In this document: piece by piece, positions 1 through 55,881 of the stretch
How positions within the stretch are numbered: the first letter of the stretch is position 1
Layout of the letters: each line of letters starts with the position of its first letter
Source of the DNA: Minisyncoccota bacterium
GTDB lineage: Bacteria; Patescibacteriota; Minisyncoccia; Phycocordibacterales; DATDWN01
Reading direction: 5' to 3'
NCBI GenBank assembly: GCA_041658985.1
Contig: JBAZZC010000006.1
Location: 2,369 to 66,368 of the forward strand
DNA: 64,000 bases
The notes under the pieces: generated by a model
Database searches by the model: none
The model's input: the letters and a program-made list of their open reading frames with translations, nothing else
What the model was told of the DNA's origin: nothing
Translations under genes and position numbers: made by a program

Positions 1-108
1 TGCGACGAACCAATCGGACTCAAAAGGCTCGAGGCTCTACCTGAAGCAAGTCGCTGTGTGACCTGCGAAGAGAAATTCGAGGAAGACAAACAACAGCACT
101 AGCCTGCC
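1..108 (+). CDS. 3' end of a DksA/TraR-family C4 zinc-finger protein (partial at window edge, GC-rich)
   Basis: Frame 3 reads ...CVTCEEKFEEDKQQH*. The CxxC spacing matches a TraR/DksA C-terminus. GC-rich, unlike the surrounding genome. A hairpin plus T-run terminator follows at ~150-215. Confidence 0.35.
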
Positions 109-224
109 CAAGTACACTTGGGGGTGTTCCGGACCGGATCCCAGCCCGGCTCCGGAGCACTCCACCCCGCACACGCCTCGTCGGCTAACCAAAATCGGCC
201 GATGAGGTTTTTGTTATTTATCCG

Positions 225-253
225 CAGGCTAACTAGTGATATAATAATCTAAG
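225..253 (+). repeat. Solo arm of the TTATCCGCACAC-type inverted-repeat family (copy F), carrying an extended -10 TGATATAAT
   Basis: TTTATCCGCAGGCTAACTAGTGATATAAT resembles the arms of copies A-E and the sequence at 29311-29339. No partner arm is visible in the window. Confidence 0.4.
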
Positions 254-273
254 TTATAAATTAAATTAACTTT

Positions 274-2043
274 ATGTATAAAAAATTAATTTTTCTTGTC
301 CTTTTTGCTTTTTTGTCTGCCTACGCAGGCGGACCGTTATCTCTTTTTGCCGCTTCGGCTTCTATTGATTATTTCTATACCAGTACAACCGTCCCCGTCG
401 GCACTCAAATTTTCTTTAGAGTCAACCCCTTAGGCTTTCCTGGTTCTATTGTGTATTCAGTCACTGATTCCCTTTCCGGGTCCAGCGTCTCCAATTCACG
501 TATAGATAGCTATGGGTCATTTGTTTGGACACCAACCTTACAGGACGTCGGCACTCACAATATTATTATCAACTTGTCAGATTCATCCGGAAATACTGCC
601 TCTGTTACTCAACAAATAACAGTGCCTTTTGTACCCACTGTTGTAATCCAAAACCTTTTTCCCAGCACCTCGGTTAACGCCAAACAAACCGTTTTCTTTA
701 ACGCTTTTGCAACAGGATTTACAAACCCAACCTATTATGCCAGTGACTCTGTTTATAATTCAAGCATGACCGCAACAAACATGAACGCTTCTGGTGGTTT
801 CAGTTGGACACCCAGAGAATTTGATGCGGGAAGTCATGTTATTACCGTACTAGTAACAGACAGCGCCGGACACAGAGCCACTGCCACACAAACTATTACT
901 GTCGGAGTAGCCACTACGACCATAACGTTACTTTCTCCAGGAAATACAGTCGCCTCCAAACAAAATGTTACTTTTAAAGTTACCCCCACAGGTTTTACAA
1001 ACCCCACCCATGCAGTATCTGATTCTGTTTCGGGAAGTAGTATTGGTAATGGAAACATAAACGGTCTTGGGATTTTTAGTTGGACCCCCACTATAAATGA
1101 TTTAGGTACCCATCTAATTACAATAAAAACAAGTGATACCTCTGGAAATACCTCAACTATTTCACAACAAATAACCGTGACCAGTCCAAAAATAGAAATT
1201 TTATCTGTAAACCCTGGCACAGCCGTTAATGTTGGAACTATCCTATCTTTCATTGCGACTTCAACTGGATTAACAAACCCAAATTACACAATTACTGATT
1301 CATTGAGTGGAACAAGTGTCTCTAAGAGCAGTAGAGCCACAACTGGTGGCTTCTCTTGGACTCCAAAAGGTAACGACTTGGGGTCGCACACCATAAGAAT
1401 ATTGGCCATGGATAATTATGGTAGTAGTGCAAATGGAGAGGTGTTAGTAACAGTCAAACCGCAAACAAATGCAGTAATTTCTTATCCTGCAGGTAGCGGA
1501 ATTGTAACCCCCCCAACAAATACTAAGACCACAGTCACAAATTATACCTTTAAAAAATATCTTTCTCTTGGGTCATCCGGTGCTGATGTTTCTGCACTAC
1601 AGACCATTCTAAAACAAAAAGGATTTTTGTCTGGAGATATTACTGGATATTATGGAAATCTAACGACAAAAGCTGTTAGAGATTTTCAGTTGTCAAAAGG
1701 TCTAGAACAAGCTGGAGTTATAGGCCCAAGAACAAGAGTGGCGTTAAATAGCTTGAGTAATACTACAACTACTTCAACTCCCCCAACCACATCAGCGACC
1801 CCAGGAGCAGGAACAAACACTGCAAAATACACATTTACTAAACCATTAACGATAGGTTCGGCCGGCACCGAAGTGTTTGAGTTACAAAAAAAATTAACCA
1901 GTCTAGGTCTATATTCTGGGCCAATTACTGGAACATATAACTCATTAACCTGGGAGGCAGTTAAAAAATTCCAATCTCAACATAACCTAGAACAAGTTGG
2001 GAGTATTGGGCCGGGCACAAGAAACGCCCTAAATAATAACTAA
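274..2043 (+). CDS. Secreted cell-surface protein with a signal peptide, four tandem ~110-aa Ig-like repeats and two C-terminal peptidoglycan-binding (PG_binding_1-like) domains
   Basis: 589-aa ORF with a hydrophobic N-terminus. The repeat motif GFTNPTY...SDS.SGSS...GGFSWTP..DLG.H.I occurs four times. The C-terminus has two copies of L.LGS.G..V..LQ..L...G.....ITG.Y...T..AV..FQ... Confidence 0.7.
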   Translation: MYKKLIFLVLFAFLSAYAGGPLSLFAASASIDYFYTSTTVPVGTQIFFRVNPLGFPGSIVYSVTDSLSGSSVSNSRIDSYGSFVWTPTLQDVGTHNIIINLSDSSGNTASVTQQITVPFVPTVVIQNLFPSTSVNAKQTVFFNAFATGFTNPTYYASDSVYNSSMTATNMNASGGFSWTPREFDAGSHVITVLVTDSAGHRATATQTITVGVATTTITLLSPGNTVASKQNVTFKVTPTGFTNPTHAVSDSVSGSSIGNGNINGLGIFSWTPTINDLGTHLITIKTSDTSGNTSTISQQITVTSPKIEILSVNPGTAVNVGTILSFIATSTGLTNPNYTITDSLSGTSVSKSSRATTGGFSWTPKGNDLGSHTIRILAMDNYGSSANGEVLVTVKPQTNAVISYPAGSGIVTPPTNTKTTVTNYTFKKYLSLGSSGADVSALQTILKQKGFLSGDITGYYGNLTTKAVRDFQLSKGLEQAGVIGPRTRVALNSLSNTTTTSTPPTTSATPGAGTNTAKYTFTKPLTIGSAGTEVFELQKKLTSLGLYSGPITGTYNSLTWEAVKKFQSQHNLEQVGSIGPGTRNALNNN

Positions 2044-2607
2044 TTATACTAATTTTTGTTCAGTGTGACTATGTATATCTCCAACTTTATTTTGGTGACT
2101 AAATATTATTCTACGAACTTCTTCTGGATGCCTAACGGTTGTCATATTAAATTCCTGACTATTTTCACTGGCAGTTTGAACTCTAATGTTTCCGAACTTT
2201 AAAAAAGTTGGGATAAAACCCTGAACATCTAATGTAACATCCTGTATTCTATCAAAACGCAGATTTGAAACCTCTCTATGAAAAATGTTTTTTTGGTCAA
2301 TTATAATAATACGTTTTTCCGTTACATACCAAACATCTAAATAGTATTTTGTCCATTCAACAAAAAAGGAAATCCACAGAAAAAGTAACCACAGTGTATA
2401 AAAAAATAAAAAAAGAGCATATTTATTTCCATAAAAATTTATATTAAAAAATTCAGGAATAAATATTTCAACTATCTTAAATAAGATAATCGGCAAAAGA
2501 GCAGCAAATAGCAAAACTGTGGCATAACCCACAAAAACGATCCAGTGTTTACGAACTTCAAAGACAACATGCTCGTCCGACTCTAGATGTAGTGCTTTGT
2601 ATAACAT
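2044..2607 (-). CDS. Membrane protein with a bPH_2/YdbT-like (membrane-flanked PH) domain
   Basis: 187-aa ORF with two TM helices followed by a soluble domain. It abuts the upstream stop with no gap. Confidence 0.5.
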   Translation of the reverse strand: MLYKALHLESDEHVVFEVRKHWIVFVGYATVLLFAALLPIILFKIVEIFIPEFFNINFYGNKYALFLFFYTLWLLFLWISFFVEWTKYYLDVWYVTEKRIIIIDQKNIFHREVSNLRFDRIQDVTLDVQGFIPTFLKFGNIRVQTASENSQEFNMTTVRHPEEVRRIIFSHQNKVGDIHSHTEQKLV

Positions 2608-2609
2608 GA

Positions 2610-2858
2610 TTAGTAATAATTTAAAGCTATAGTGGAAATCACAAACAAAGTTACCGATACTATTACAAATGTAGTCTCAGCAAGAATAACCTTAGCACTA
2701 TACATTCCATATTCAGACCAGTGATAGATAAGAGCCGCAGAGACAATCACATATAAAACAAAAAAGAGTCCTAAAACAATAGGAAGAATTGGTGTGGTAC
2801 TAAAAAAGGATGACATAAAATTTGGAAGTGCTGGAATTATGAATGGTGGTGGTTCCAT
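2610..2858 (-). CDS. Small integral membrane protein (start trimmed to MEPPPF)
   Basis: ORF 2610-2909. The extension beyond Met18 runs into repeat arm G, so the start is trimmed. Three predicted TM segments. Confidence 0.4.
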   Translation of the reverse strand: MEPPPFIIPALPNFMSSFFSTTPILPIVLGLFFVLYVIVSAALIYHWSEYGMYSAKVILAETTFVIVSVTLFVISTIALNYY

Positions 2859-2864
2859 ATAAAT

Positions 2865-3005
2865 ATTTATCCGCACACTAATTTTGCCATTGTTTTCAAT
2901 ATTCTGCAACAGAACCCTGTATAAATTCGACTTGAACTGTTTGCGTCAAAAAAATAGAAAGCCATGTTGAAAACCAGAATGATGGCAAATTTAGTGTTCG
3001 GATAT
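2865..3005. repeat. Paired-arm inverted-repeat element, family 1 copy G
   Basis: Left arm TTTATCCGCACACTAATTTTGCCATTGTTTT pairs with right arm AATGATGGCAAATTTAGTGTTCGGATA across a ~75-nt AT-rich spacer. It lies between the DedA stop and the small membrane ORF start, 7 nt from the ATG. Confidence 0.6.
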
Positions 3006-3021
3006 ACCAAATAAAGAAAAA

Positions 3022-3618
3022 CTATTCACTTTTGATAAGATACTTTTTAGCAAGCTTGCTAGATATTATAAACGAAAGAACAACAATAATAATACTTATT
3101 ACAATAAACCCAATAATATTTAGATACCCGTCTATTTTTATATATGAACTACCAATATAATACCCCAAAAACAACAAAGCAGAAGTTTTTAGAATAGTCA
3201 TTATTAAATTAATCCAAAGATATTGAAGGAAATTAACTTTAGCAATTCCCGCTGTTATCTGTATTACCGTACCCGTACCATGAAAAAATTTTGCCGCAAG
3301 GAGTGTCTTGATTTTGTGCTTTCTAAAGTGATTCTCCAAAAACTCCTCACTATTTTCATCATAGCCAAACCAGGACCCGTGTTTTTTTATCCAGACAGAC
3401 TTTTGCCAATATCTACCAACAACATAATGTAATACATCTCCCGTTAAATCACCCACAGCCAACAAAATATAAACTATATAAATATTCAACAAACCCAAAT
3501 AAATAAAAAAGCCAGAAATAACCGTGACGATTGGGCCTTCAAACACTGCGATTGGAAAAATCAGTAAGTATTTATATTGTTCTAAAAAAAACGAAATATC
3601 CGATGAGGATAAAAACAT
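3022..3618 (-). CDS. DedA/SNARE-associated family membrane protein
   Basis: 198 aa, multi-TM, with the DedA-like motif VTVISGFFIYLG...GDLTGDVLHY. Confidence 0.7.
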   Translation of the reverse strand: MFLSSSDISFFLEQYKYLLIFPIAVFEGPIVTVISGFFIYLGLLNIYIVYILLAVGDLTGDVLHYVVGRYWQKSVWIKKHGSWFGYDENSEEFLENHFRKHKIKTLLAAKFFHGTGTVIQITAGIAKVNFLQYLWINLIMTILKTSALLFLGYYIGSSYIKIDGYLNIIGFIVISIIIVVLSFIISSKLAKKYLIKSE

Positions 3619-3788
3619 ACTAAAATAATGACAATTATATAGATAAAAAGCAAGTAGAAAAATTAAATTGACTTATGGAAAAAAATTTGCTTTAATTGGC
3701 CTATCAACTGGCTCTGGGGCCTTTTTTAAATTGAACTGTATCTTTTGATTTGAAGATTTGGATGCAGTTCGCGAAAGACGAAAAAAAT

Positions 3789-3830
3789 ATGACGAGCTTT
3801 ACTCGTCGTAAAGTGAGGAATGTTTTTTGA
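3789..3830 (+). promoter_or_regulatory. 13-codon upstream ORF (MTSFTRRKVRNVF) overlapping a perfect hairpin in the typA leader
   Basis: ATG at 3789 and TGA at 3828. Codons 2-7 form the hairpin GACGAGCTTTACTCGTC. A TTGACT -35-like motif sits ~100 nt upstream. Confidence 0.25.
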
Positions 3831-3870
3831 AGTCCGACAAAGAAATGCGCCAAATATACAAATCAAACAT

Positions 3871-5673
3871 ATGGAAATTAGAAACATAGCTATCATAGCC
3901 CACGTAGATCACGGCAAGACCACACTGACTGATGCTCTTATGCGTCAAACAGGAATGGTCACAGAAGAAAACGTGACAATGGATTCAAATGCACTTGAAC
4001 TAGAACGAGGTATTACTATTTATGCAAAAAACACATCCATTTATTATCCGTCCCAAAACTCCGGTAGAGAAGTAACAAAAATAAACATTGTAGATACTCC
4101 AGGGCACTCTGATTTTGGTTCAGAGGTGGAGCGAGTGCTTCGTTCTATTGATACAGTTTTACTTTTAGTTGATGCTCAGGAAGGACCAATGCCTCAAACA
4201 AGATTTGTTTTAAAAAAATCTCTAGAACTAGGATTAAAACCAATTGTTATAATAAACAAAATTGATAAGCCCGCATCCAGACCAGAAGAAGTCCACGAAC
4301 TTGTTCTTGAACTTTTTATGGAGCTCGGAGCAAATGATGAACAGCTAAACTTCACAACTGTCTACGCAATAGGGCGAGATGGAATAGCTAAGATGAAGTT
4401 AGAAGATGAGAGTAAAGATTTGACTCCCCTACTAGAGACAATTCTAGGGGAAGTTCCACCTGCCTCTGGTGACAAAAATCTTCCAGCCAGACTTCAGTCT
4501 TTCAATTTATCATATGACAACTTTCTCGGACGACTTGCTGTTTGTCGAGTATACGAAGGCACAATAAAAAACGGCGATGCTGTTTTTGTTAAACAACATG
4601 AGGGAGGAAAAATTATTCCAGGAAAATTGACAAAGCTTTTTAGTTTTGAGGGAATAAAAAGAAAAGAAATAGAAGAAGCTGTGGCTGGAGATATTGTTAT
4701 GATAGCCGGATTGCCTTCGGTCTATATTGGAGACACAATTTGTAAAGATGAAAACGCAGAGATGCTTCCCTCTATTAACATAGACGAACCAACAATCTCT
4801 CTCAATTTTTTGGTTAATGACTCCCCCTTTGCCGGAAGAGAAGGAAAATATGTGACAGGAAGACAAATCCGAGAAAGACTAGAAAAAGAACTAGAAATAA
4901 ATGTTGGTCTGAAAATTGACTGGAATGATAATTCTCCGTCAATTGGTTATACAGTTTACGGCCGTGGCGAATTACATATTGCCATCCTTCTTGAAAACAT
5001 GCGCCGAGAAGGTTATGAACTTCAAGTGTCACAACCAAAAGTTATCATAAAAGAAAAGGATGGAGTACAACTTGAACCATTTGAGGAAGTAACCATAGAT
5101 GTTCCCGAGGAATTGGCTAGTTCTGTTATATCAAAACTGACCGAAAGAAGAGGAATTCTCATGAATGTAAAGAAAACCCACGGGCACCAGAGAGTAATTT
5201 TTGAAATCCCAACCAGAGGACTTTTGGGTTATAGAGGACAATTTATTGTAGATACAAAGGGTCTGGGAATATTAGCCTCTAGGTTTGTAGAATTTCGTCC
5301 ATATGTCGGTGAGATAAAACGCACAAGTTATGGCTCTATGGTTTCAATGGAAAGTGGTAAGGTTTTGGCTTTTGCACTAGATAATCTCCAACAAAGAGGC
5401 ACTCTTTACGTTGAGCCTGGGGTTGAGGTCTATATTGGAATGGTGATAGGAAATGTTTCCAAGGGTGATGACTTGTCAGTCAACCCAACAAAAGGCAAAC
5501 AACTATCAAACATGCGGGCTTCCGGTTCAGATGATAAAGTCTATCTTGCCGCAACATATAAATTAGATATTGAAAAAGCTATGGAGACAATGAATGCCGA
5601 TGAGTTTATAGAAATTACTCCAAAATCAGTGCGTCTCAGAAAAAAAATAGTAAAGAAACCACTACCTAAGTAG
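3871..5673 (+). CDS. typA: GTP-binding translational GTPase TypA/BipA (start moved to MEIRNIAIIAHVDHGKTT)
   Basis: G1-G4 GTPase motifs (AHVDHGKTTL, DTPGH, NKID), EF-G-like domains and a BipA-type C-terminus. The ORF upstream of Met18 is read-through. Confidence 0.9.
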   Translation: MEIRNIAIIAHVDHGKTTLTDALMRQTGMVTEENVTMDSNALELERGITIYAKNTSIYYPSQNSGREVTKINIVDTPGHSDFGSEVERVLRSIDTVLLLVDAQEGPMPQTRFVLKKSLELGLKPIVIINKIDKPASRPEEVHELVLELFMELGANDEQLNFTTVYAIGRDGIAKMKLEDESKDLTPLLETILGEVPPASGDKNLPARLQSFNLSYDNFLGRLAVCRVYEGTIKNGDAVFVKQHEGGKIIPGKLTKLFSFEGIKRKEIEEAVAGDIVMIAGLPSVYIGDTICKDENAEMLPSINIDEPTISLNFLVNDSPFAGREGKYVTGRQIRERLEKELEINVGLKIDWNDNSPSIGYTVYGRGELHIAILLENMRREGYELQVSQPKVIIKEKDGVQLEPFEEVTIDVPEELASSVISKLTERRGILMNVKKTHGHQRVIFEIPTRGLLGYRGQFIVDTKGLGILASRFVEFRPYVGEIKRTSYGSMVSMESGKVLAFALDNLQQRGTLYVEPGVEVYIGMVIGNVSKGDDLSVNPTKGKQLSNMRASGSDDKVYLAATYKLDIEKAMETMNADEFIEITPKSVRLRKKIVKKPLPK

Positions 5674-5778
5674 TAAAATCTAGAATTTCTATTGATTTTT
5701 ATTAAGAAGATGACCTCACCACACGCCGGAGTGTTGTAGTGCGTGCGATGAGGCCATTTTCTCTACAAGAACTGGGGG

Positions 5779-6102
5779 CTAGTGCTGACGGACGGCATAT
5801 CGCCACCGGTGGTTTAATCTCACGGGTGCTTGCCGTGGCCGAGTAAAGACCAAAAGAAACTGCTCGGCCCGCCTTTTCTCATCTTTTTCCAGTCGTTCCA
5901 CAGCGAAAAGCACGGCGACAATCCTGCCAAGTGGCTCCTGAGGAAACTTGTACGCCTCCCCATGCTCCACATCGCGCACGACTTCTCTTTCCACGTGCGC
6001 AAGCTCGGCGAGTTCAACCCGACTGATTGAGGGATACCTCTCTCTCCCACACCGAACAATATGACCAAACGCCCTCACGACCCGAACCATCGCCTTTGAC
6101 AT
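5779..6102 (-). CDS. GC-rich cassette gene: Xre-family helix-turn-helix regulator
   Basis: SISRVELAELAHVEREVVRDVEHGEAYKFPQEPLGRIVAVL matches the Xre HTH signature. RBS GGGGG lies before the ATG at 6102. A TTGCAA/TGATAAT promoter-like pair lies upstream and a hairpin downstream. ~60% GC. Confidence 0.5.
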   Translation of the reverse strand: MSKAMVRVVRAFGHIVRCGRERYPSISRVELAELAHVEREVVRDVEHGEAYKFPQEPLGRIVAVLFAVERLEKDEKRRAEQFLLVFTRPRQAPVRLNHRWRYAVRQH

Positions 6103-6173
6103 GCGACCCCCACGATTAGATGCCACACTCCACTTACAATCAAATCATTATCACAAAAACTTTGCAAACACAT

Positions 6174-6951: not shown

Positions 6952-7099
6952 ATTAATCCGAACACTAACTTTAGCATCGTTGCCTAGTGTTTTCGTATAT
7001 TATTACCCAATTTGATATTTACTATAGAATAATACATAGTTAATACTAAATAACAAGCAACAGTAAAAACACAATGCTAAAGTTAGTGTGCGGATAAAT
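6952..7099. repeat. Paired-arm inverted-repeat element, family 1 copy A (between divergent truB and hisS)
   Basis: Arms TTAATCCGAACACTAACTTTAGCATCGTTG and CAATGCTAAAGTTAGTGTGCGGATAAAT. The right arm ends 1 nt before the hisS ATG. The spacer is AT-rich with outward promoter-like hexamers. Confidence 0.65.
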
Positions 7100-9210: not shown

Positions 9211-9235
9211 GTAAAAATCTTTTTTTCATCACAAT

Positions 9236-9370
9236 CTTTTCAGAGCAACCCTAAGAAATTCCAGCGAATTTCTTAAGGCCAGTCCTCACCCTCTATCTGT
9301 CAAGAGCCCTCGCTTTGCTCGGGTCTATGACAGAACCATGCTAGAGGGTTGCGGGGTCTCTGAAAAAATT
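9236..9370 (+). ncRNA. Candidate structured RNA element (multi-stem, strand uncertain)
   Basis: Closing helix CAGAGCAACCCT...AGGGTTGC(GGGGT)CTCTG. Internal perfect hairpin AAGAAATTC-CAGC-GAATTTCTT and nested stem CTGTCA...TGACAG. No family recognised. Confidence 0.25.
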
Positions 9371-9776
9371 ATGATTCAACAAGATTTTAATTTTTATTTA
9401 TCCCTAAGGTTGTGCCTTTAAAATTATTGTTTTTATAAACGAAAAAGAGGCGGCGGGGACTCTGCTGGCAGTCCCCACCCCTCTCGTGTTCCTTGGCCAG
9501 AGTGCCTCGCTCCCTCGAGAGCTACTGGCCGTCAATCCACACATCTGACCGTGTCGTGTCGCTACTGGCCAGTCGAGGTCGCCGTCGGCGCCATCTTGGT
9601 GGTTGTCGCCGCCGCCGTCGTCCTGGTCTTCGCCGTGCGTCGCTTCGTCGCCGTGGTCATTTCCTGCACCTCCTGTGTCCCGGAAAGAGTTGACGTGGAT
9701 GACGCGACTCCGCGATGCCATCCTCTATTAGCATAACAAAACAGTATTTACTGTGTCAATAGTTATCCACAGCACC

Positions 9777-14288: not shown

Positions 14289-14486
14289 CTATTCAGCGAC
14301 ACAAACTGGAACTGGAGGTAAGACAACCGCCTTCCAGACCCCTTCTTGGTGATTGAACTCCATATCCTCAAGAAGTTTCCAGCACTCATCACAGTAGCGA
14401 TACCCCTGAAAAATGACACGAACTTTCTTTCCGTGGCAGAATGGGCAACGCCTCTCGCCATCCTTGATATACGAAGCTTCAATCAT
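14289..14486 (-). CDS. Small C4 zinc-ribbon protein co-transcribed upstream of the helicase-nuclease
   Basis: CPFCHG...YCDEC. RBS GGAGGT lies 4 nt before the ATG at 14486. Palindrome ATGACCATGGGGTCAT sits just upstream. 18 nt separate it from the helicase start. Confidence 0.5.
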   Translation of the reverse strand: MIEASYIKDGERRCPFCHGKKVRVIFQGYRYCDECWKLLEDMEFNHQEGVWKAVVLPPVPVCVAE

Positions 14487-14562
14487 GTGACCTCCAAAAA
14501 ACAAATATGACCCCATGGTCATTTCGCATTTATAGTAACATTTTATATTTTTTTACACAAAC

Positions 14563-14620
14563 AAAAAAGCCTCGTGCCGGTGGGGATGCCCACATTGGGC
14601 ACCCCACCTACACGAGACCG
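14563..14620 (-). terminator. Rho-independent terminator of GC-island gene 1
   Basis: GGTGGGGATGCCCA-CAT-TGGGCACCCCACC stem followed by a U-run on the minus strand. Confidence 0.6.
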
Positions 14621-14622
14621 CG

Positions 14623-15240
14623 TCAGAAGTTCAGCCTTAGACCGGCCGAACCCCCAACTTTCTTCCCTTCCTTGACCGGCGCGACCCAGAGGTCGAACGG
14701 ACCGAACGACCTCTCAATGTACGGCCCGGTTCCGACGAACCGAGTGGAATTGGCCCCGAGCTTCCAGGAGCCGAGACGGACGGTGCCGGTGTACCGATAC
14801 CAGTATCCGCTCCCGCCGTTCTCATGTGAACTCTCAAGAGTCACTCGACCCTTGCTAATCCACAAGTTGCCTGCGAAGCGAAGTGGCTTCCTGTTGGTCT
14901 CCGCACCAACCAAGAAAGCCACCTGGATGGAGTCAACGGGGGCAAACGTCAGACCGACGAGCCCTTCGGCCCATTTCTCGGTTGACCACTGTCCCCCATC
15001 CTCTGTCCACTGGTTCGTGCCCCACCCCCACACGGCCCACCCGAACTTGCCCTTGATGGGGCCTTCCAGATAGACCGTAACCGAGGGGCTCGTATGCCCC
15101 CCAACGTACTCGTTGTACGATTCGACGAATCGAGTTGGCTCCTGCGCCGACGCCGGCACAAGTGAGGCCACCATCATGACGAGCAAGATGATGACCGTGA
15201 CACCGAAAGTCCGCGGACGAGTATCCAGTGTGATGTCCAT
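14623..15240 (-). CDS. GC-rich secreted protein, possibly an outer-membrane beta-barrel (signal peptide, C-terminal ...LRLNF)
   Basis: 205 aa with an SP ending ASAQ. It has alternating hydrophobic beta-strand-like segments and a C-terminal Phe. ~62% GC with its own promoter and terminator. Confidence 0.5.
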   Translation of the reverse strand: MDITLDTRPRTFGVTVIILLVMMVASLVPASAQEPTRFVESYNEYVGGHTSPSVTVYLEGPIKGKFGWAVWGWGTNQWTEDGGQWSTEKWAEGLVGLTFAPVDSIQVAFLVGAETNRKPLRFAGNLWISKGRVTLESSHENGGSGYWYRYTGTVRLGSWKLGANSTRFVGTGPYIERSFGPFDLWVAPVKEGKKVGGSAGLRLNF

Positions 15241-15254
15241 TGAAACCTCTTTGG

Positions 15255-15330
15255 AATCGGCTGGGGCGACATGCCCCTCTGCTCACAACAATAGCACCAA
15301 AATATTAAATTGTCAATATAAAATTTTGAT
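15255..15330 (-). promoter_or_regulatory. Promoter/5'UTR module of island gene 1 (TTGACA-17-TATTGT, then a GGGGC..GCCCC hairpin)
   Basis: 40 nt are nearly identical to 16085-16125 upstream of the paralogue. Confidence 0.5.
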
Positions 15331-15333
15331 ACG

Positions 15334-15384
15334 AAAAAAGCCCCGTGCCTGCGGAACCCGAGATGGGTTCCGCCGCACGAGACC
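15334..15384 (-). terminator. Rho-independent terminator of GC-island gene 2
   Basis: GCGGAACCC-GAGAT-GGGTTCCGC followed by a U-run. The outer flanks are shared with the terminator at 14563-14620. Confidence 0.6.
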
Positions 15385-15389
15385 GCGCA

Positions 15390-16064
15390 CTACTTGGTCG
15401 ACGCCCAGTGGACACCGACGTAGTACATGTACTGCTTCGCGTTCCCGTTCCGAGAGACGCTCCCGGTAACCGAGAAGTTGTTGTTGACCCTCTGGGTGTA
15501 CGACACCCCAGGGATCCGGTTCAGCGGGTCGTCGAGGAAGTTGAGAAGCGTGTAAGTCAAGCCGACAGGCCCGATATTGGCGTTGAAGCTCGCCAAGTAC
15601 CCAATCCACAGCTTCTCGGGGTTAACCCCGGAGCGCCAGTTCCTCGGCTCGACGCCGATGAACAGACACGGCCACTGAAAAGTCCCTACCGAGACCTCCT
15701 GCCCGGCAATCTTGCCGACCGGCAGACTCATATTCAGGTAGGGACCGACCCACGGAGAGCCCTGGAAGTGCCCAGCCGAACCGGCGACGGTTCCTGTGAG
15801 CTTTCCGAGCTTGAACTCGGGCCCCCAGACAACCCACGCCTGCTCCTGCTGAAATGCCACCTCGAGAAGATGGCCCCGGCCGTTCTTGAAGTCGACGATC
15901 CCGGTTATGCCAGAGCTGATCGGATCCTCACCGGCGGACACCGTGGCACCGGACAGCTTGTAGCCGCCGGGGTCCGCAGGCGGAGTCGCCGTCTGTGCCT
16001 GCGCCGCGAACGGCGTGAGACAGAGGACAAACAGGATGGATGCGACGAGTGTCTGTCTCTTCAC
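15390..16064 (-). CDS. Paralogous GC-rich secreted protein (GTG start, signal peptide ...AAQAQ)
   Basis: Start moved to the GTG at 16064, behind the duplicated promoter module. N-terminal signal peptide; overall similar architecture to 14623-15240. Confidence 0.45.
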   Translation of the reverse strand: MKRQTLVASILFVLCLTPFAAQAQTATPPADPGGYKLSGATVSAGEDPISSGITGIVDFKNGRGHLLEVAFQQEQAWVVWGPEFKLGKLTGTVAGSAGHFQGSPWVGPYLNMSLPVGKIAGQEVSVGTFQWPCLFIGVEPRNWRSGVNPEKLWIGYLASFNANIGPVGLTYTLLNFLDDPLNRIPGVSYTQRVNNNFSVTGSVSRNGNAKQYMYYVGVHWASTK

Positions 16065-16084
16065 GTTGGTCCTTTCGGTATCTT

Positions 16085-16140
16085 GGAGGCGACATGCCCC
16101 TCTGCTCACAACAATAGCACCAAACATCCATTTTGTCAAT
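16085..16140 (-). promoter_or_regulatory. Duplicated promoter/5'UTR module of island gene 2
   Basis: TTGACA...TATTGT plus the same GC hairpin as upstream of gene 1. Confidence 0.45.
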
Positions 16141-16202
16141 ATATCTCCTCCCCCCACCTTCACACAATAAAACCTTTAATCTCGTTGAACTAAAATCTTT
16201 TT

Positions 16203-16310: not shown

Positions 16311-16339
16311 AAAGGTTTTGGTGAAAAAGAGATTAAAAA

Positions 16340-38345: not shown

Positions 38346-38489
38346 AAATTTAATTTAAATTTATATCTTTAAGGTCCTAAAGGATAATTTTGAGTGAAGT
38401 TCAAGGCGCGAAGTTTTGTTTGTGACCAAGCTGTATAGAAATACTGCGCGTGGAACAAACAAAACAAGCAACGCAGAAATTCGCCAAAA

Positions 38490-39712: not shown

Positions 39713-39979
39713 CTACTCCTTTTGACCACCCGCCTTTACTTTATTGAGAGCCATTTCTTTCTCAAGGGAGAAAAACTCGGCTCTTTTAATCCTCTGGGAG
39801 AGAGCATAAATCCAGCTTACATTGCAGGGGTCGTGGGCTTTTACCCACTCAAGGTAAGCTTTCCCTTCCGTGATGAGTTGGTACATCCACTCAAGAGGAT
39901 CTTCCGGGTGAAGCTTTCTAAGGGCTTCAGCGCAGTCGACAAGTTCTTGTTCCACTTGAACCTTGTTTTGTTTTCCCAT
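39713..39979 (-). CDS. Moderately GC-rich 88-aa hypothetical protein with its own RBS and terminator
   Basis: RBS GGAGGTG and a terminator hairpin plus T6 at ~39610-39665. Confidence 0.4.
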   Translation of the reverse strand: MGKQNKVQVEQELVDCAEALRKLHPEDPLEWMYQLITEGKAYLEWVKAHDPCNVSWIYALSQRIKRAEFFSLEKEMALNKVKAGGQKE

Positions 39980-40082
39980 TTTTTCACCTCCTTCGTGGGA
40001 AAATGGATTGGGTTGTCGGGTTACAAATCTAACAAGAATATATCATTTTTTGTTAATTGAGTAAATATGCTATAATGCTGGC

Positions 40083-42050: not shown

Positions 42051-42091
42051 AACCTAATAATGTTGTATAATGCCAGAGGAGGTGTCACGCC

Positions 42092-42520
42092 ATGGTAGCA
42101 AGAGTGTTGCAATGGCTTCAAGTGATGCCATTGAAAAAGAAGCGAGAGAAAAAACTCCGCGGAGTCGCCCTTGCAGTAAAGATCGCGGGTGACATCGCAG
42201 AAGCTGGACTGCTTAGGGTGGTGGAGAGAGATGACAATCCACCTGGAGAGGTCTGCGCCAAAATCAGAGTCTACACCAGACTGAGGGTAACTACCAAGAT
42301 AGAGGGTACGGAACCACCAGTCTACTACTCCGAATGGAAAGAGTTCAGGTGGTGGGTCAATCTTCGCCCAAAACACTTTCCAGCAAGTGTGGAAAACCCA
42401 GGTCCCCTGATTCCAGAAGCACACCAGATTCACTCTATTGAATTCTGGTTCGCAAAGAAAAGAAGCTGTCGGCATCTCGCCGACCCCAGTACACATCTCA
42501 CGATCAAATCGTGGGAATGA
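42092..42520 (+). CDS. GC-rich cassette gene (142 aa, hypothetical)
   Basis: TTGGAC-17-TATAAT promoter overlapping the rnr stop, RBS AGAGGAGG, and a downstream CCCCC...GGGGG hairpin. Confidence 0.4.
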   Translation: MVARVLQWLQVMPLKKKREKKLRGVALAVKIAGDIAEAGLLRVVERDDNPPGEVCAKIRVYTRLRVTTKIEGTEPPVYYSEWKEFRWWVNLRPKHFPASVENPGPLIPEAHQIHSIEFWFAKKRSCRHLADPSTHLTIKSWE

Positions 42521-42579
42521 TAACCCCCAAGTGAATCGTTTTCGTGACGGTGAACAAGGGGGTTTCGCGTTTTAAAAAA

Positions 42580-44613
42580 TTATAATCTTTCAAGTATCTT
42601 TACTACTCCTTTATTTGCATCAACCTCTACAATGTCTCCATCTTTCAGTATTTGAGTTGCAATCCTTGTTCCAATAATACATGGTTTTTTGAGTTCCCTA
42701 GCAGTAATAGCTGCATGAGAAGTGATTCCTCCCTCATCAGTTATAATTGCACCAGCTTTTAATACAGCAGGTAAAAAGTCAGTTGTGGTCATAGGAGAAA
42801 CAATAACATCTCCTTCCATCACCTCCCCCACCTGTTCTCTTCGTCTTAAGATTTTTACTTTACCAGTCACCCTCCCCTTTTGAGCGATTTCGCCTCTTAT
42901 CTCATTAGACCCCTCCCCACTTACAACATCTTTTTTAAAAATAAAGTTTGGATGTAATTTATTAAATTCATCTAGGGTTATCATTAATCTTTCTGCCCCT
43001 TGAACCGCAAGAAAATGCTCCCTTCGTTTTTTTAATATATCAATATCTGGAATTGAATCTAGCTCGTCAAAGAAAATTGTTGTCTCTAAACCTTTTAATT
43101 CTGGATACAAACTAATAAGACTGTTACGAATAACTATGTCGTTTTTTGCAAAGAAGTCGTCTTCGTTTCGCATTTCAATAGCCTTATCCATCACATTTTT
43201 TGGTGTCCTATCATCTAAAGTAGAGTAATAGTACGGAATATAATAAGCCATGGTCTCTTTTGATATTTCAATCAATTTCTTTATCTTTTCAATAGAGAGC
43301 ATCTTTTCTTCCCACAATTTATGGATTGCTGACAATTTTTCTTTGTATTTTTTCAGAACTTCATCCATAAATTCCGAAGTTTCAGAGTTTTTCTTTAAAA
43401 TAGTACTTGATAACCACCTAGTAGCCCTTACATTTTCCCAAACTTCAATACTTCCTTGACTCATATAGTTAATAATGATTGGAGTATATGGATTTTTCCA
43501 ACCATATTCTTTTTCAACTGCTTCAGAACAGCCATAAGGCCACATTTCCTGCATTATGTACGTTGTGTCACGAGTTATTTTTTCAAAAATTATTTTTCTT
43601 GGTCCAAATATTGTGGTTAATGTTTTTTTCCAAAAACCATTTTGACTCTTTTGATTTGGTTTTTCTTTTAATAAGGTTGTGATTGGACGGCTTTGTAAAA
43701 TATAAAAATTTCCACCCTCAAGTGCCCACTCAATGTCACAAGGAAAATCGTAGTGATTCTCAATTTTTATTATTAAGTCAGCCAACTCAAGAATTTGTGC
43801 TTCTGTAAGAACTTGAGATGAGGCTTTGGGTTCTGAAATATCTAGCCATTCATTACCACCAGTCTCTGCACGATAAAGCCCCCTCGTTTGAGTGGAGATA
43901 TTCGTATCAATAATTTCTCTTGGTTCTTTTTCAACGACATAAGAATTTGGGGTAATCTGTCCTGATACAATTGCTTCGCCCAAGCCAAACCCGGCTTCTA
44001 TTACTATTTGATTTTTGTCTTCTGTAACAGGATGAACAGAAAAGGCAACGCCTGATATTTCGGAATCAACCATTTTTTGAACAACAACTGCTACTGATAT
44101 TTTAGTTGTGTGCAAGCCCTTTTCAAACCTGTAAAATATAGCTCTCGGGGTAAAGAGAGAGGCCCAACATTTTTGAATATTTTCAAGTAAATTTTCTTCT
44201 TTTGTATTTAAAAATGAATCAAGTTGTCCCGCCCAAGCGTTTTCTGTTCCATCTTCGGCCGTAGCAGAAGAGCGAACGGCAACAAATTTAGCATCTAATT
44301 CTTTAAACTGTTTTTTTATTTCATCTACAATATTCTCTGGTATTGTTACATTCTTAATTAGACCTTGTATTTTTTCTGAAACATTTTCTACTGTGTGTAT
44401 TTCTCTGTGGTCAACCCCATAAAGAGCACTATCAATTTCTTGAATCAAATCCGACTCTTTTATAAACTGGTCAAAAGCTGTGGACAAGATAATAAATCCA
44501 GAAGGTATCGGCATCCCCGCCTGTGCCATTTCACCAAGGGAGGCACCCTTACCTCCAGCCAAAGTAACATCTTTTTTATTTATCTCTGTAAATTTTTTAG
44601 TAAAATTCCACAT
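42580..44613 (-). CDS. PEP-utilising enzyme family protein with an N-terminal PpsA-like ATP-grasp and a C-terminal phosphohistidine swivel domain; no obvious PEP/pyruvate TIM barrel
   Basis: N-terminal KGASLGEM...GFIILSTAFDQF and C-terminal GGITSHAAITARELKKPCIIG. 677 aa. Confidence 0.65.
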   Translation of the reverse strand: MWNFTKKFTEINKKDVTLAGGKGASLGEMAQAGMPIPSGFIILSTAFDQFIKESDLIQEIDSALYGVDHREIHTVENVSEKIQGLIKNVTIPENIVDEIKKQFKELDAKFVAVRSSATAEDGTENAWAGQLDSFLNTKEENLLENIQKCWASLFTPRAIFYRFEKGLHTTKISVAVVVQKMVDSEISGVAFSVHPVTEDKNQIVIEAGFGLGEAIVSGQITPNSYVVEKEPREIIDTNISTQTRGLYRAETGGNEWLDISEPKASSQVLTEAQILELADLIIKIENHYDFPCDIEWALEGGNFYILQSRPITTLLKEKPNQKSQNGFWKKTLTTIFGPRKIIFEKITRDTTYIMQEMWPYGCSEAVEKEYGWKNPYTPIIINYMSQGSIEVWENVRATRWLSSTILKKNSETSEFMDEVLKKYKEKLSAIHKLWEEKMLSIEKIKKLIEISKETMAYYIPYYYSTLDDRTPKNVMDKAIEMRNEDDFFAKNDIVIRNSLISLYPELKGLETTIFFDELDSIPDIDILKKRREHFLAVQGAERLMITLDEFNKLHPNFIFKKDVVSGEGSNEIRGEIAQKGRVTGKVKILRRREQVGEVMEGDVIVSPMTTTDFLPAVLKAGAIITDEGGITSHAAITARELKKPCIIGTRIATQILKDGDIVEVDANKGVVKILERL

Positions 44614-46868: not shown

Positions 46869-47005
46869 TTCGTCTTCTAGTATATCAAATTTTTTTCATA
46901 ACAGAAAAAACAATAACAAAGGAAAAAAGTAATCTACTAAAATAATTTGACAAAACCGTCCTTTAATAGGATCATATTGGCTGGACCCTTTCAAGGAGGC
47001 CCGTT

Positions 47006-47326
47006 TTGAAAGCTAGAGGCTTCAACCTTTTCGCACTCGGCGCTCTGTTCGGAGTTCTCCTAACGGCAGGTGTTGGCCGATACAAGGCCAACGACCAGCC
47101 GACGGAGGTCGTCACGAACCACGACTGGACGTGGGTCAAGGTGGAAAACCTCGTGGGCGTACCCACGAAGGGACACGACTACAGTTTCGGTGACATGTGT
47201 AGCATCATGCCTGGCGGGGTACTGGAGGTCCAAAGAAAGGTGGACCCCTGGGTAGTGCTGGAGTACACAAGTCCCCGAGAACCAACCGAGCCCGAGTGTG
47301 GGAGAGCGGGACCATTTTCAGCATGA
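47006..47326 (+). CDS. GC-rich cassette gene: small secreted protein (TTG start, signal peptide)
   Basis: RBS AGGAGG 7 nt before the TTG. TTGACA promoter upstream. Two hairpins follow, the second with T6, at 47372-47460. Confidence 0.45.
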   Translation: MKARGFNLFALGALFGVLLTAGVGRYKANDQPTEVVTNHDWTWVKVENLVGVPTKGHDYSFGDMCSIMPGGVLEVQRKVDPWVVLEYTSPREPTEPECGRAGPFSA

Positions 47327-47492
47327 AGCTGGCTGAGTTCGACAGACGATGGCCTGCGACACGATAAGTACCTCATGGGATCCTGTAGACTGACAATGCG
47401 TCACTCTACAGGATCCCAGCCCCCGAATTGGAAAACTCCGTTCGGTGGGTTTTTTCGTTTAAAAATCACAATATTGAGTTATAACTTTTTCA

Positions 47493-50456: not shown

Positions 50457-50631
50457 TTCGTTATTTTAACATACCCTATGTTTACCTAAATAATTTTTTA
50501 TGATATTTCAATTTGGTACAATATATTGTATCAAATTGAAATATTGGAGAGATTGTTTTTTTATAAAAACAAAAAGAGCCGTCGGCGCACGAAACGCAAA
50601 CGGACTCTTTGGAAAAAACGTACTGACACAC

Positions 50632-50898
50632 TTACTTGCGCTTGGCAAGTCGTTGAAGCGCATTATCCGCTTCACGGACTTGCGTCGTCAGGCGAAATAC
50701 CTCAAGACGCAAATCCTCACACTCACGAACCAGACGAACAGCGTTTGCCAAAAGGCTAATCTTGGCGTTGGCATCTGGGTCTGGATTGCCAGAATCAACA
50801 CCATCCTTGAGAAACCTGATTTGGACAAGCATCAGGGCTTTGAAAGCATCAAGGGGAATCTCGAGCTTCCTTCCTGTTACCAACTCTTGCGTACTCAT
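50632..50898 (-). CDS. GC-rich cassette gene b (89 aa), N-terminal paralogue of 50910-51248
   Basis: RBS GGAGGA. Terminator AAGAGCCGT...ACGGACTCTT plus U-run at 50565-50625. Confidence 0.4.
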   Translation of the reverse strand: MSTQELVTGRKLEIPLDAFKALMLVQIRFLKDGVDSGNPDPDANAKISLLANAVRLVRECEDLRLEVFRLTTQVREADNALQRLAKRK

Positions 50899-50909
50899 AC
50901 TTCCTCCAA

Positions 50910-51248
50910 TCAAGAACCTGTTGTTGTCTTGGCCTGCAGTTCAACGAGGCCACAGGTGCATGGCTTGGCCTCGTGAACAACGACACCACCATGACCGATG
51001 ACGGCCGGAACCATGGTGCACCCGTCTGTGTGCTGGATGTACGGCTTCAGCGCCTCGACCTTCGCACGAAGGTCAGCGAGTTCGCGAACCGCAAGGACAG
51101 CAGGCTCGAGGACTTCTTCCTGCTCTCTGGTGTAACCATCACCACCCCCGGTCCTGAGGTAATGAATTTTGATCAGGATTTTCTGCAACACCCGATCAAG
51201 AGAGTCGACGAGCTTTCTTCCTTTGACCAAATCACTCAGGTCGTCCAT
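50910..51248 (-). CDS. GC-rich cassette gene a (113 aa) with a CxC motif near the C-terminus
   Basis: RBS GGGAGG. N-terminus ...LVKGRKLVDSLD... parallels ...LVTGRKLEIPLD... of gene b. Its stop lies 12 nt upstream of gene b's start codon. Confidence 0.4.
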   Translation of the reverse strand: MDDLSDLVKGRKLVDSLDRVLQKILIKIHYLRTGGGDGYTREQEEVLEPAVLAVRELADLRAKVEALKPYIQHTDGCTMVPAVIGHGGVVVHEAKPCTCGLVELQAKTTTGS

Positions 51249-51389
51249 TGACTTTGCCTCCCACCACAAAATACCACTACTTTTCCCAAATATCAAGCCC
51301 CTCTCCACCATAATGATGACATGCTATAATGTGAATCGAGCCTGTATTCACTTTATAACTTTCTACTTTATAACTTTATAACTCCTCAC

Positions 51390-54596: not shown

Positions 54597-54641
54597 TCAT
54601 AATTTATCATTACTCAACTTAAAAATTATTTAATATCTCAT

Positions 54642-55028
54642 TTACGCCATGGCTGAAATGGAAGAGTTGTATGGTTGTGCTAATTTAAATGTTTTGAATT
54701 TATTCCTTATTTTTATCTCCTCAAGGTAGCTTAGAAATTGTTTTGGCAGTGGTGACGGCCCGACCCAAATACTCTTTTGTATCATGACATATCCAAATTT
54801 AATTAAATGTCGCCTAAACCAATCTCTTTCTTTTTTTAGCTCGTGTGGAATATCATACATGACGATAAGATTTTTTGGTAAACTTTTATTGAAAGGAGAC
54901 TGGAAAGAAATATGATATGGGTTTCTTTTTTTTATTACTGATTTGTTGTTTTGTTTTTTAGTAGATACTGGTAAACCAAACATATTTACTTTCACACCTT
55001 TATAATTAAAAATTTTTTGCTTACCCAT
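54642..55028 (-). CDS. Solo Cas2/VapD-superfamily protein with a ~45-aa Lys-rich N-terminal extension
   Basis: LIVMYDIPHELKKERDWFRRHLIKFGYVMIQKSIWVG parallels the Cas2 pattern (ILMFDMP..ERK.YRKFRKFL..GF.M.Q.SVY). No cas1 or CRISPR array nearby. Confidence 0.45.
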   Translation of the reverse strand: MGKQKIFNYKGVKVNMFGLPVSTKKQNNKSVIKKRNPYHISFQSPFNKSLPKNLIVMYDIPHELKKERDWFRRHLIKFGYVMIQKSIWVGPSPLPKQFLSYLEEIKIRNKFKTFKLAQPYNSSISAMA

Positions 55029-55050
55029 ATATTCTATTATACACTACTAT

Positions 55051-55078
55051 CCCCATATACGCCATGGCGTATATGGGG
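55051..55078. promoter_or_regulatory. 28-bp perfect palindrome CCCCATATACGCCATGGCGTATATGGGG overlapping the -35 region of the Cas2-like gene
   Basis: It lies directly upstream of TGTATAAT (extended -10), which ends 8 nt before the ATG of 54642-55028, suggesting a leaderless mRNA. Confidence 0.5.
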
Positions 55079-55159
55079 ATATACAGTATTGTTAGTGTTT
55101 TTATATAGTTGTTTGTATAACAAAGGGCTGGTCGAGTTGACCAGCCCCAAGAACACACA

Positions 55160-55714
55160 TCAGTCTCTGTCGGCCCTGTGCCGATCTGATTCGGTACGCT
55201 TCACAGCATGTGTGGCACGTTCTGCTCGCACCTGCGCCACAATCTTGCGTTTCCGCTCGAGGAGATCGGTCGGGGAGCCAGGATCACCACACAGTTGTTG
55301 TAGATAGAATTCGCTCAGGCGCCGAGCACCTGCCAGACTGGCTTTGTCACGAGCAGGCTCAGAGTGAAGCCGGATGAGGTGGAAAGCCTCGTTCTGATCC
55401 ACTCGAGCAATATGCTCAATGACGGCCACCCAAACAGCTGACAGAAGAGAATTTCTGTAGATCTCCTTGAAAATCTCCAGGTCCCCGATCTGTTGGAGTT
55501 GACGCAGAGCATCGTAGGCTGCATCCTGGTCTACTCCAATTGCAATCTCGTACAGCCGGCGCCCCAACCGGAATGCATCCGCTACACTCCTTGCAAAAAC
55601 CTTGCGATACTTACGAAAGAACTCTGTGTCTTTCGTAGTCACTTCATGTTCTGAGAGAATCTGAAGTGTTGAGTTGATCTCCGTTCCCGTCATGGACGAA
55701 AGTAAGCTGGCCAT
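55160..55714 (-). CDS. GC-rich cassette gene (184 aa, hypothetical)
   Basis: TTGACA-16-TATAAAT promoter and RBS GGAG. Terminator GGGCTGGTC-AACTC-GACCAGCCC plus U-run at 55110-55145. Confidence 0.45.
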   Translation of the reverse strand: MASLLSSMTGTEINSTLQILSEHEVTTKDTEFFRKYRKVFARSVADAFRLGRRLYEIAIGVDQDAAYDALRQLQQIGDLEIFKEIYRNSLLSAVWVAVIEHIARVDQNEAFHLIRLHSEPARDKASLAGARRLSEFYLQQLCGDPGSPTDLLERKRKIVAQVRAERATHAVKRTESDRHRADRD

Positions 55715-55881
55715 ATGGCTGGCTCCTTCTAATAAGGTAACTGCTGGCTCGGGATGAGCTGGCTCAAAGTTACCCTTTCCGTGTTTATTTATACTCTAAA
55801 AGCTACGTCTGTCAACAGAATGAGGAGAGTTCTTCTACATTTGACATTGACACAAGATTTAAGATTTTGTAGGATAAAAAG

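Follow-up and report, generated by a model that had tools for sequence, protein, structure and literature searches.

Moron-like, GC-rich expression cassettes at fixed slots between core genes: a probable exchangeable accessory gene pool in a Paceibacteria-type chromosome

Acquired DNA is usually AT-richer, and integron cassettes, which are small exchangeable units, are promoterless, end in attC and are arrayed beside an integrase. A different kind of unit is the phage moron, a concept reportedly associated with the names of Juhala and Hendrix. As defined in one review (PMC3594210), morons carry their own promoter and terminator, lie between genes that are adjacent in relatives, have a GC content unlike that of their flanks and spread horizontally; on bacterial chromosomes, hotspots of horizontal gene transfer (HGT) make up about 1% of chromosomal regions, according to Oliveira et al. 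2017 (PMC5635113). Here, we compare with these systems a stretch of 64,000 nucleotides (nt) of contig JBAZZC010000006.1 (positions 2,369 to 66,368; hereafter the window), in which 13 intergenic sites within about 56 kb, or roughly one per 4 kb, carry GC-rich units of one or two genes. These cassettes probably represent a moron-like accessory pool whose members pass between related Patescibacteria and occupy fixed slots between genes.

The large open reading frames (ORFs) of the window encode RpoB, RpoC, DnaG, RpoD, DnaE, GyrB, SMC, BipA, HisRS and ThrRS, together with RNase R, RNase III, RNase HII, TrmD, S16, a NusB-Nudix fusion and similar proteins, and because housekeeping proteins thus make up its large ORFs, the window is bacterial chromosomal DNA; its source is a Paceibacteria-type bacterium (Patescibacteria/candidate phyla radiation, CPR). 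The nearest species-level genomes are metagenome-assembled genomes (MAGs) labelled Patescibacteria, Paceibacterota, Parcubacteria or Saccharibacteria, with RNase R proteins that share no more than 80% identity with the one encoded here, and the closest relative among metagenome contigs is 72% identical. The GC content of the whole window is 38.7%, with a core background of 0.377 +/- 0.036 and a maximum of 0.49 (300-nt windows within 41 core genes). An earlier sequence-only reading had listed at least 13 complete, compositionally foreign units among AT-rich housekeeping genes: a sliding scan for 200-nt windows with a GC content above 0.47 recovered every listed interval, and z scores and the GC content at third codon positions (GC3) bear out the compositional claim. 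The list itself required correction, since the block at 14540-16320 consists of two units, which brings the number to 14 (Table 1); the interval 1-215 is GC-rich and yet not a complete unit, holding just the 3' end of a DksA/TraR gene and its terminator; and within 9230-9730 the GC-rich unit proper occupies 9447-9760, 9230-9365 being a distinct structured non-coding element. The 14 delimited units show a GC content of 0.47-0.65 (z = 2.7-7.6 versus core-gene windows) and together amount to about 12.5% of the first 55.8 kb, whilst GC3 is bimodal, with values of 0.51-0.77 for cassette ORFs and 0.17-0.36 for core genes.

Table 1. Position and make-up of the cassette units and of a recurrent intergenic motif in the window (GC as a fraction; aa, amino acids; SD, Shine-Dalgarno motif; HTH, helix-turn-helix; 5'UTR, 5' untranslated region)
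Feature	Position	Strand	GC	Description
i01	1-215	+	0.57 (z 5.4)	3' end of DksA/TraR-type zinc-finger gene; stop codon 100-102; GC-rich 3' region; hairpin terminator ~150-210 (-21.5 kcal/mol)
i02	5700-6165	-	0.55 (z 4.8)	one-gene unit, ORF 5779-6102 (107 aa), possibly HTH protein; terminator hairpin -28.7 kcal/mol
i03	9447-9760	-	0.65 (z 7.6)	promoter TTGACA-18-TATGCT with TG, GC-rich transcript, terminator; promoter and terminator among top scan matches
i04a	14565-15320	-	0.60 (GC3 0.73)	ORF 14623-15240 (205 aa), signal peptide, predicted 12-strand beta-barrel ending ...LRLNF; terminator -40.7 kcal/mol
i04b	15335-16143	-	0.62	ORF 15390-16064 (~224 aa), signal peptide; promoter TTGACA-17-TATTGT with TG
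i05	31040-31372	+	0.54	ORF 31096-31317 (73 aa), AAGGAG SD; terminator found by scan, common with convergent ybaK-like gene
i06	32915-33875	-	0.56	two genes: i06a 33477-33719 (80 aa), i06b 33030-33389 (119 aa)
i07	36685-36995	+		ORF 36734-36946 (70 aa); promoter TTGACA-16-TAATAT; GGAAGGAG SD; terminator
i08	37870-38310	-		ORF 37928-38233 (101 aa) within conserved rpsP-KH-trmD array; terminator found by scan
i09	39620-40070	-		ORF 39713-39979 (88 aa) between back-to-back S16 and RNase R promoters
i10	42055-42580	+		ORF 42092-42520 (142 aa); TGTTGTATAAT promoter; AGAGGAGGTG SD
i11	46947-47460	+	0.56	ORF 47006-47326 (106 aa), N-terminal hydrophobic anchor; promoter TTGACA-17-GATCAT
i12	50590-51340	-		paralogous ORFs i12a 50910-51245 and i12b 50632-50898
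i13	55120-55830	-		ORF 55160-55714 (184 aa), helical-repeat protein; promoter TTGACA-17-TATAAA; structured 5'UTR
ACAATGCCAAAGTTAGTGTGCGGATAAA motif pairs	2866-3006, 6953-7098, 26463-26602, 27913-28054, 60426-60564, 62999-63141			outward-facing inverted pairs

On reading the units individually, a common build is apparent: a resident-type promoter (TTGACA with a spacer of 16-18 nt, or an extended -10 element), a 5'UTR of 25-125 nt with a strong, GGAGG-type SD, one or two ORFs of 70-225 aa and a GC-rich hairpin followed by a T-run, with the GC-rich stretch coinciding with the transcribed region and the promoters remaining AT-rich. The sequence-only reading had ascribed this build to every unit; it is seen in nearly every one, the promoter of i01 being cut off by the window edge and those of i05 and i12 not being clearly identified. 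The top matches of a promoter scan (TTGACA/extended -10) fall on i03, i04a, i04b, i07 and i11; generic promoter and terminator scan totals for the window as a whole were not enriched over shuffles, although the highest-scoring sites of these scans lie on cassettes. An SD motif precedes 13 of the 15 cassette starts compared with 2 of the 41 core starts (Fisher p = 5e-9), and terminators differ in strength, the median energy of the best hairpin being -21 kcal/mol in cassettes versus -5.5 kcal/mol in core genes (Mann-Whitney p = 4e-7). Since promoter, SD, ORF(s) and terminator are all its own, each cassette could be expressed alone and insulated from its neighbours, which agrees with the insulation proposed earlier; many of the neighbouring core genes are apparently leaderless, their promoters running directly up to the start codon. 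Core genes also lack an SD in about 40 relatives (L001-L080) that span 33 to 56% GC, and TATAAT-like -10 hexamers peak 6-10 nt before the core start codons: for these two reasons, many core mRNAs are probably leaderless. The juxtaposition of SD-led accessory genes and SD-less core genes recurs in relatives L174 and L081, and a crude and noisy SD scan in relatives gave 39-48% for rare GC3-rich ORFs against a background of 23%. Judged by these motifs, the translation initiation signals of accessory and core genes differ, a split of which we found no description in the literature searched.

A trivial origin of the compositional contrast would be an assembly or binning chimera, in which reads of a GC-rich organism have been joined into an AT-rich contig. 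Nothing but the contrast itself speaks for this, and its probability is negligible: nine cassette proteins were found residue-for-residue in independently produced assemblies, with the same sequence and the same junctions present in ENA contig k141_991391 (235,949 nt), in JGI data, in two MAGs that NCBI lists as 'Candidatus Paceibacterota' and in a Logan assembly of a single run, from which a contig of 3,961 nt is 100% identical to the window over RNase R, i09, S16, KH, i08 and TrmD. As identical sequence thus occurs in independent assemblies, the units are not chimeras, and this concern of the sequence-only reading can be set aside; the architecture is moreover shared by independent relatives.

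Structured RNA genes are the usual explanation of GC islands in AT-rich genomes, and the islands could accordingly be read as non-coding RNA genes with incidental ORFs. This has some appeal for i03, of which the sole SD-led ORF comprises 32 aa (9562-9660) and is followed by a long GC-rich region: neither this nor a 105-aa ORF matches Pfam, the coding capacity of the unit is doubtful and i03 may be non-coding. Neighbouring GC-rich elements at 9236-9365 and 16196-16312 also fold strongly (z -4.7 to -6.5). As an explanation of the islands, RNA genes are nevertheless very improbable, given that the ORFs span the distance from SD to terminator, that GC3 exceeds the GC content at second codon positions as is typical of coding sequence, that the families show conserved amino-acid sequences, that one product (i13) yields a confident fold prediction and that no island contains a tRNA or an Rfam family. 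For the cassettes as a group this reading was rejected, with ARAGORN and Rfam (the whole window at the gathering threshold, two sub-regions at the E-value threshold) returning only a tRNA-Arg.

What the cassettes represent is best seen by comparing the slots that they occupy. The gene order Pif1-TrmD-KH-S16-RNase R-SMC-RNase III-NusB/Nudix-75aa-RNase HII-DnaE is kept in about a dozen relatives, of which the close ones L167, L169 and L170 were obtained by exact look-up of the KH protein, and the gaps at orthologous sites vary in length between about 0 and over 1 kb, often with a GC content above background. In L167, the closest relative with readable DNA (~85% nucleotide identity), the i09 slot is an exact empty site, with the RNase R and S16 promoters abutting where the window has about 450 nt, and no target-site duplication is found at the i09 junction; the i08 slot contains an AT-rich spacer of 199 nt without a cassette and the i10 slot a diverged orthologue whose promoter and SD match those of i10. 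In L014, whose RNase R shares 80% aa identity with that of the window, the slots of i06 (27 nt between the YbaK and PGA_cap genes), i09 (~0 nt), i11 (87 nt) and i12 (14 nt) are empty, that of i07 comprises 352 nt of 29% GC without a cassette, that of i05 harbours a non-homologous, SD-led ORF of 71 aa and that of i08 a diverged orthologue (41% aa identity), of which another is present in L170. The i10 slot of L002, L006, L007 and L014 is taken by an unrelated 75-aa family, the ORF being SD-led in L014; a 227-aa GC-rich cassette specific to L014 separates RNase HII from the 75-aa gene of the conserved gene order, a gap of 136 nt in the window; and the i12 slot measures 14 nt in L002 and 63 nt in L007. 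Further orthologues are in place elsewhere: that of i09 in L169, at only 27-29% aa identity (E 4e-7), with promoter and terminator still aligning, that of i04a in L082, following rpoD and a structured element in the same order with i04b absent, and that of i13 in L173, at the same slot beside a PaaX/Cas2-like gene.

Empty sites of the kind to which the sequence-only reading had looked for support were therefore found (L167, L014); with regard to orthologous cassettes in all relatives, which it had regarded as the mark of old native genes, the outcome is mixed, some relatives carrying them and others being empty or replaced. From the conserved gene order in combination with the empty, orthologous and unrelated states in L167 and L014, the slots read as fixed and their contents as gained, lost, replaced and rapidly diverged, and because the units vary between relatives the comparison supports regarding the cassettes as a horizontally exchanged gene set of fast turnover. 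It could be objected that same-slot orthologues (L082, L173, L169, L014, L167) are just what native lineage-specific genes would leave behind, if these were inherited vertically and differentially lost and if their GC content were actively maintained, for example by selection for stable structured mRNAs or for regulated SD-dependent translation amid a leaderless system. The match of the GC-rich stretch to the transcribed region, with AT-rich promoters, would agree with this, as would the high GC3 of four families across lineages with saturated synonymous divergence (dS) and an i13 homologue in L174 that, with a GC3 below that of its GC-rich neighbours, retains the composition of its family. 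We regard native genes as a possible, if unlikely, explanation: non-homologous cassettes occupy one slot in different relatives, the closest relative has exact empty sites, the extra i04b is missing from L082, and divergence changes abruptly between KH and S16/i09. In the comparison with L169, dS is 0.09 for KH (100% aa identity) and rises to 1.74 for the adjacent S16 and 1.24 for i09, a sharp recombination boundary beside i09, of the kind to be expected if homologous recombination had brought in a divergent segment. Compared with L173, dS is 2.4 for i13 and 0.58 for the neighbouring PaaX/Cas2-like gene, the latter value coming from only 61 codons.

Homologues are known for six of the cassette families (i04a, i13, i12, i08, i09 and i10), and each homologue with readable flanks sits in a Patescibacteria-like contig, several of them at the same slot; those of i12 are weak and come from other Paceibacteria loci. 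The GC3 of these homologues is 0.56-0.76 for i04a (flanks 0.32-0.46), 0.63 for i13 in L173 (flanks 0.35), 0.59 for i09 in L169 (flanks 0.32) and 0.40 for i08 in L014 (flanks 0.32), an excess over AT-rich flanks that persists despite the saturation of synonymous sites between lineages. L174 is GC-richer, and its i13 homologue, at a GC3 of 0.45, falls below the neighbouring genes (0.58-0.68). Because the homologues are GC3-rich beside AT-rich flanks and lower than their neighbours in L174, the families seem to hold an intermediate-to-high GC content of their own irrespective of the resident genome, and given the saturation of synonymous sites the contrast would be a persistent family trait rather than a fresh foreign signature. 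We also observed that the i04a homologue of L081 lies within a six-gene GC-rich block (331-5291; 0.53-0.59 versus 0.46 for its neighbours) that includes a Band_7 protein, with an SD in three of the six genes and none in the neighbouring MraZ, RsmH and PBP genes.

The codon usage of the cassettes is nearly flat, correlating with that of the host core at r = -0.28 and with that of GC-rich Paceibacteria core genes at r = +0.57, and favours G-ending codons where the latter favour C-ending ones; it matches no sampled donor well. In case of the repeated acquisition from a high-GC donor that had been proposed from the sequence, the horizontal turnover is upheld, whilst a high-GC host or another non-CPR donor is not supported by these comparisons. 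Direct capture from such an organism, for example the host of an episymbiont, would explain why the genes bring their own SD and terminator and why their composition has not yet drifted: GC, GC3, SD and strong terminators are untypical of core genes, relatives show empty sites, and the model of i04a is a beta-barrel of outer-membrane type with Phe as its last residue, as is characteristic of two-membrane bacteria. Even so, this origin is distinctly unlikely. Wherever flanks can be read, the contigs that carry homologues are Patescibacteria-like, and several homologues occupy the same slot; those with AT-rich flanks are equally GC-rich despite saturated dS; the i04a and i13 families are very sparsely represented in large protein databases (nine homologues among 5.8 billion proteins and 12 representatives among 1.84 billion, respectively); the promoters are of resident type, with i04a and i04b sharing theirs; codon usage is flat instead of donor-like; and matches to plasmids, phages or PHROGs are absent. 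It is the contexts of the homologues, their persistent GC3 and the flat codon usage that particularly disfavour a one-off capture from a high-GC host. A phage or plasmid origin was likewise rejected, as three viral-contig scans and two plasmid tblastn searches returned no relatives of the cassettes.

The cassette proteins gave nothing above cut-off in Pfam, PHROGs, PADLOC, NCBIfam or PDB sequences, with the exception of the DksA/TraR tail, and by these searches they are ORFans. The nine homologues of i04a form a family alignment with conserved residues, among them a hydrophobic N-terminus ending in ...ASAQ and a terminal ...NF. The AlphaFold model of i04a is of moderate confidence (predicted local distance difference test, pLDDT, 68) and comprises 12 antiparallel strands, for which Foldseek returned porins, KdgM, NanC and the intimin beta-domain (template modelling score up to 0.62): with a signal peptide, an even number of strands and a C-terminal aromatic residue, the predicted protein has the features of a porin-like outer-membrane beta-barrel. 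No BamA/Omp85 gene was seen within the window, and to our knowledge the Patescibacteria lineage is generally thought to be without an outer membrane. The twelve representatives of i13 came from an exhaustive search of family representatives, a non-exhaustive protein search having returned the query alone; its model (pLDDT 92.7) is an all-alpha helical-repeat without a match in the PDB. The conserved i04a alignment together with the two models argues that the products are real proteins. Their fast evolution may point to surface or regulatory roles in interactions with a host or with phages, a theme suggested by the porin-like barrel of i04a, the signal peptide of i04b, the membrane anchor of i11, the predicted helical-repeat binder i13, the finger of i01 and the possible HTH of i02. 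A further-reaching reading holds that two translation-initiation regimes are split by gene class, that the GC content of the cassettes, a dense array within the AT-rich core, is actively maintained, through GC-biased gene conversion linked to frequent recombinational exchange or through selection on the mRNA, and that the products are rapidly diversifying effectors including an outer-membrane-type 12-strand barrel; taken as a whole this is unlikely, and, within it, the modelled i04a barrel could itself be delivered into the host cell membrane.

Returning to the exchanged cassette pool that we consider probable, the islands would constitute the flexible genome of a Paceibacteria-type bacterium, built of autonomous 'moron-like' expression cassettes that reside in slots between conserved core genes and pass between related Patescibacteria through homologous recombination in these flanking genes, probably after uptake of DNA. 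The GC-richness would belong to the cassette families and may be sustained by continual re-import from a circulating pool of higher GC content; GC-biased gene conversion or selection on the mRNA may alternatively maintain it, and neither would exclude re-import. Several points weigh against an exchanged pool. No integrase, att site, target-site duplication or common boundary repeat was found. The AT-rich relatives L008, L066 and L071 have inserts of host-like GC content. The correlation with the GC-rich Paceibacteria core is only moderate. High GC3 at saturated synonymous sites fits maintenance in place and repeated import equally well. Homologue searches of large protein databases covered the families i04a and i13 only, and the roles of the cassette products are predictions.

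With regard to the individual units, the DksA/TraR-like tail recognised earlier in i01 is confirmed, its 33 C-terminal residues matching the C4 zinc finger PF01258 (zf-dskA_traR) with E 1.9e-8 and 34.6 bits against a cut-off of 24.9 bits. The labels 'Xre HTH' for i02 and 'DUF4177' for i07 are weak, both lying under the curated cut-offs: i02 has no Pfam match and only a HipB/Xre-type NCBIfam hit (TIGR03070, E 6e-4, 19.8 bits versus 71.65 bits), and i07 a full-length match to PF13783 (E 4e-4, 21 bits versus 25 bits). From the two paralogous pairs that had been proposed, i12a/i12b is confirmed (33% identity, E 3e-8), whereas the i04a and i04b proteins show no significant similarity; these two units instead have in common a 56-nt promoter/5'UTR and the outer terminator stem (direct repeat D5, 88% identity).

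Several further elements lie beside the cassettes. Between the UvrD/PD-(D/E)XK helicase gene and i04a, a 77-aa zinc-ribbon ORF (14289-14522, CxxC...CxxC, GC 0.46) lacks an SD and gives weak Zn-ribbon Pfam matches only. The two strongly folding elements mentioned above (9236-9365 and 16196-16312) belong to a family of GC-rich hairpins of about 80-130 nt with a conserved GTCAAG...TTGACA core (z -4.7 to -6.5), further members of which were found in L014 (21436-21517), L006 (15824-15905), L082 (956-1038), L088 (1623-1703) and L003 (754-834); it occurs in one or two copies per locus, has no Rfam match, may be an undescribed small RNA and is located between rpoD and the i04 cassette(s) in the window and in L082 alike. 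As a candidate for an attC-like common site the structured element beside i03 and i04b (R1) was rejected, having one or two copies per locus (two in the window). Within the syntenic array, about 130 nt of non-coding DNA located downstream of the KH-domain gene (38357-38490; moderate fold, z -3.6) exceed many coding regions in conservation in L167, L170 and L014, and the 5'UTR of S16 contains an insert of about 190 nt (~39394-39590) with terminal inverted repeats of about 14 nt (AGAACCTAATTCA...), which resembles a miniature inverted-repeat transposable element and is absent in L167 and L169. A 677-aa gene at 42580-44613 (GC 0.35), with phosphoenolpyruvate (PEP)/pyruvate-binding (PPDK_N) and PEP-utilising mobile domains, would be accessory without the GC-rich signature, because the closest relatives have just 173-640 nt there between RNase R and SMC. 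Near i13, a near-perfect palindrome (TATCCCCATATACGCCATGGCGTATATGGGGATA, 55060-55110) immediately precedes the PaaX/Cas2-like gene; L173 has a similar one in this position, and it is possibly an operator. The tRNA-Arg(ACG) at 29396-29484 measures 89 nt, which is unusual for a bacterial tRNA-Arg, and may carry an intron or insertion. Finally, a conserved motif of roughly 29 nt (ACAATGCCAAAGTTAGTGTGCGGATAAA) is paired with its complement at six intergenic sites, around a non-conserved spacer of about 85 nt (Table 1); a few nt separate its end from the ATG of the genes for HisRS, a LexA-like S24 peptidase and a 234-aa protein, it is also found upstream of rpoB and near gyrB, and it could be a common promoter/leader or a regulator box.

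The genomes of Patescibacteria are tiny and their biology is mostly unknown, and their gain and expression of accessory genes are poorly understood. In this locus, a clean, dense and repeatable architecture sets units apart from the core in composition, translation-initiation signal and use of terminators. If the pattern holds more widely, it would provide a simple sequence rule for locating fast-evolving genes that probably function in contacts with hosts or phages, a natural setting in which to ask why GC content can persist against mutational bias, and concrete candidates in the porin-like i04a and helical-repeat i13 families.

Compared with known systems, the cassettes come closest to phage morons, with which they share, on sequence evidence, their own promoter and terminator in nearly every unit, insertion between genes that neighbour each other in relatives (empty sites in L167 for i08 and i09, and in L014 for i06, i09, i11 and i12) and a GC content that deviates from the surroundings (z = 2.7-7.6). 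They differ in residing on a bacterial chromosome, flanked by rpoB/C, dnaG, dnaE, gyrB, rpsP, trmD and smc, without any PHROG or viral-contig match, in their unusual density of about one per 4 kb and in a translation start unlike that of the core genes. As in HGT hotspots, variable content of rapid turnover lies between conserved core genes, no recognisable mobility gene is present in the slot and exchange is compatible with homologous recombination in the flanks; in contrast to the hotspots described in PMC5635113, the 13 occupied intergenic sites within about 56 kb are far denser. Furthermore, each slot here holds a single unit of one or two genes with complete expression signals, and the cassettes are GC-richer than their host. 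The cassettes are not classical genomic islands or integrative elements either, as the sole tRNA of the window and the IS1595 transposase gene (28382-29242) adjoin no GC island. Integron cassettes are likewise small, mostly single-ORF, exchangeable and of unknown function; the units described here are nevertheless not integron cassettes, since they have their own promoter (in nearly every unit) and terminator, are dispersed and lack attC or any other repeat common to cassette borders, and since no integrase was found among the ORFs scanned in the window, which did not include all small ORFs.

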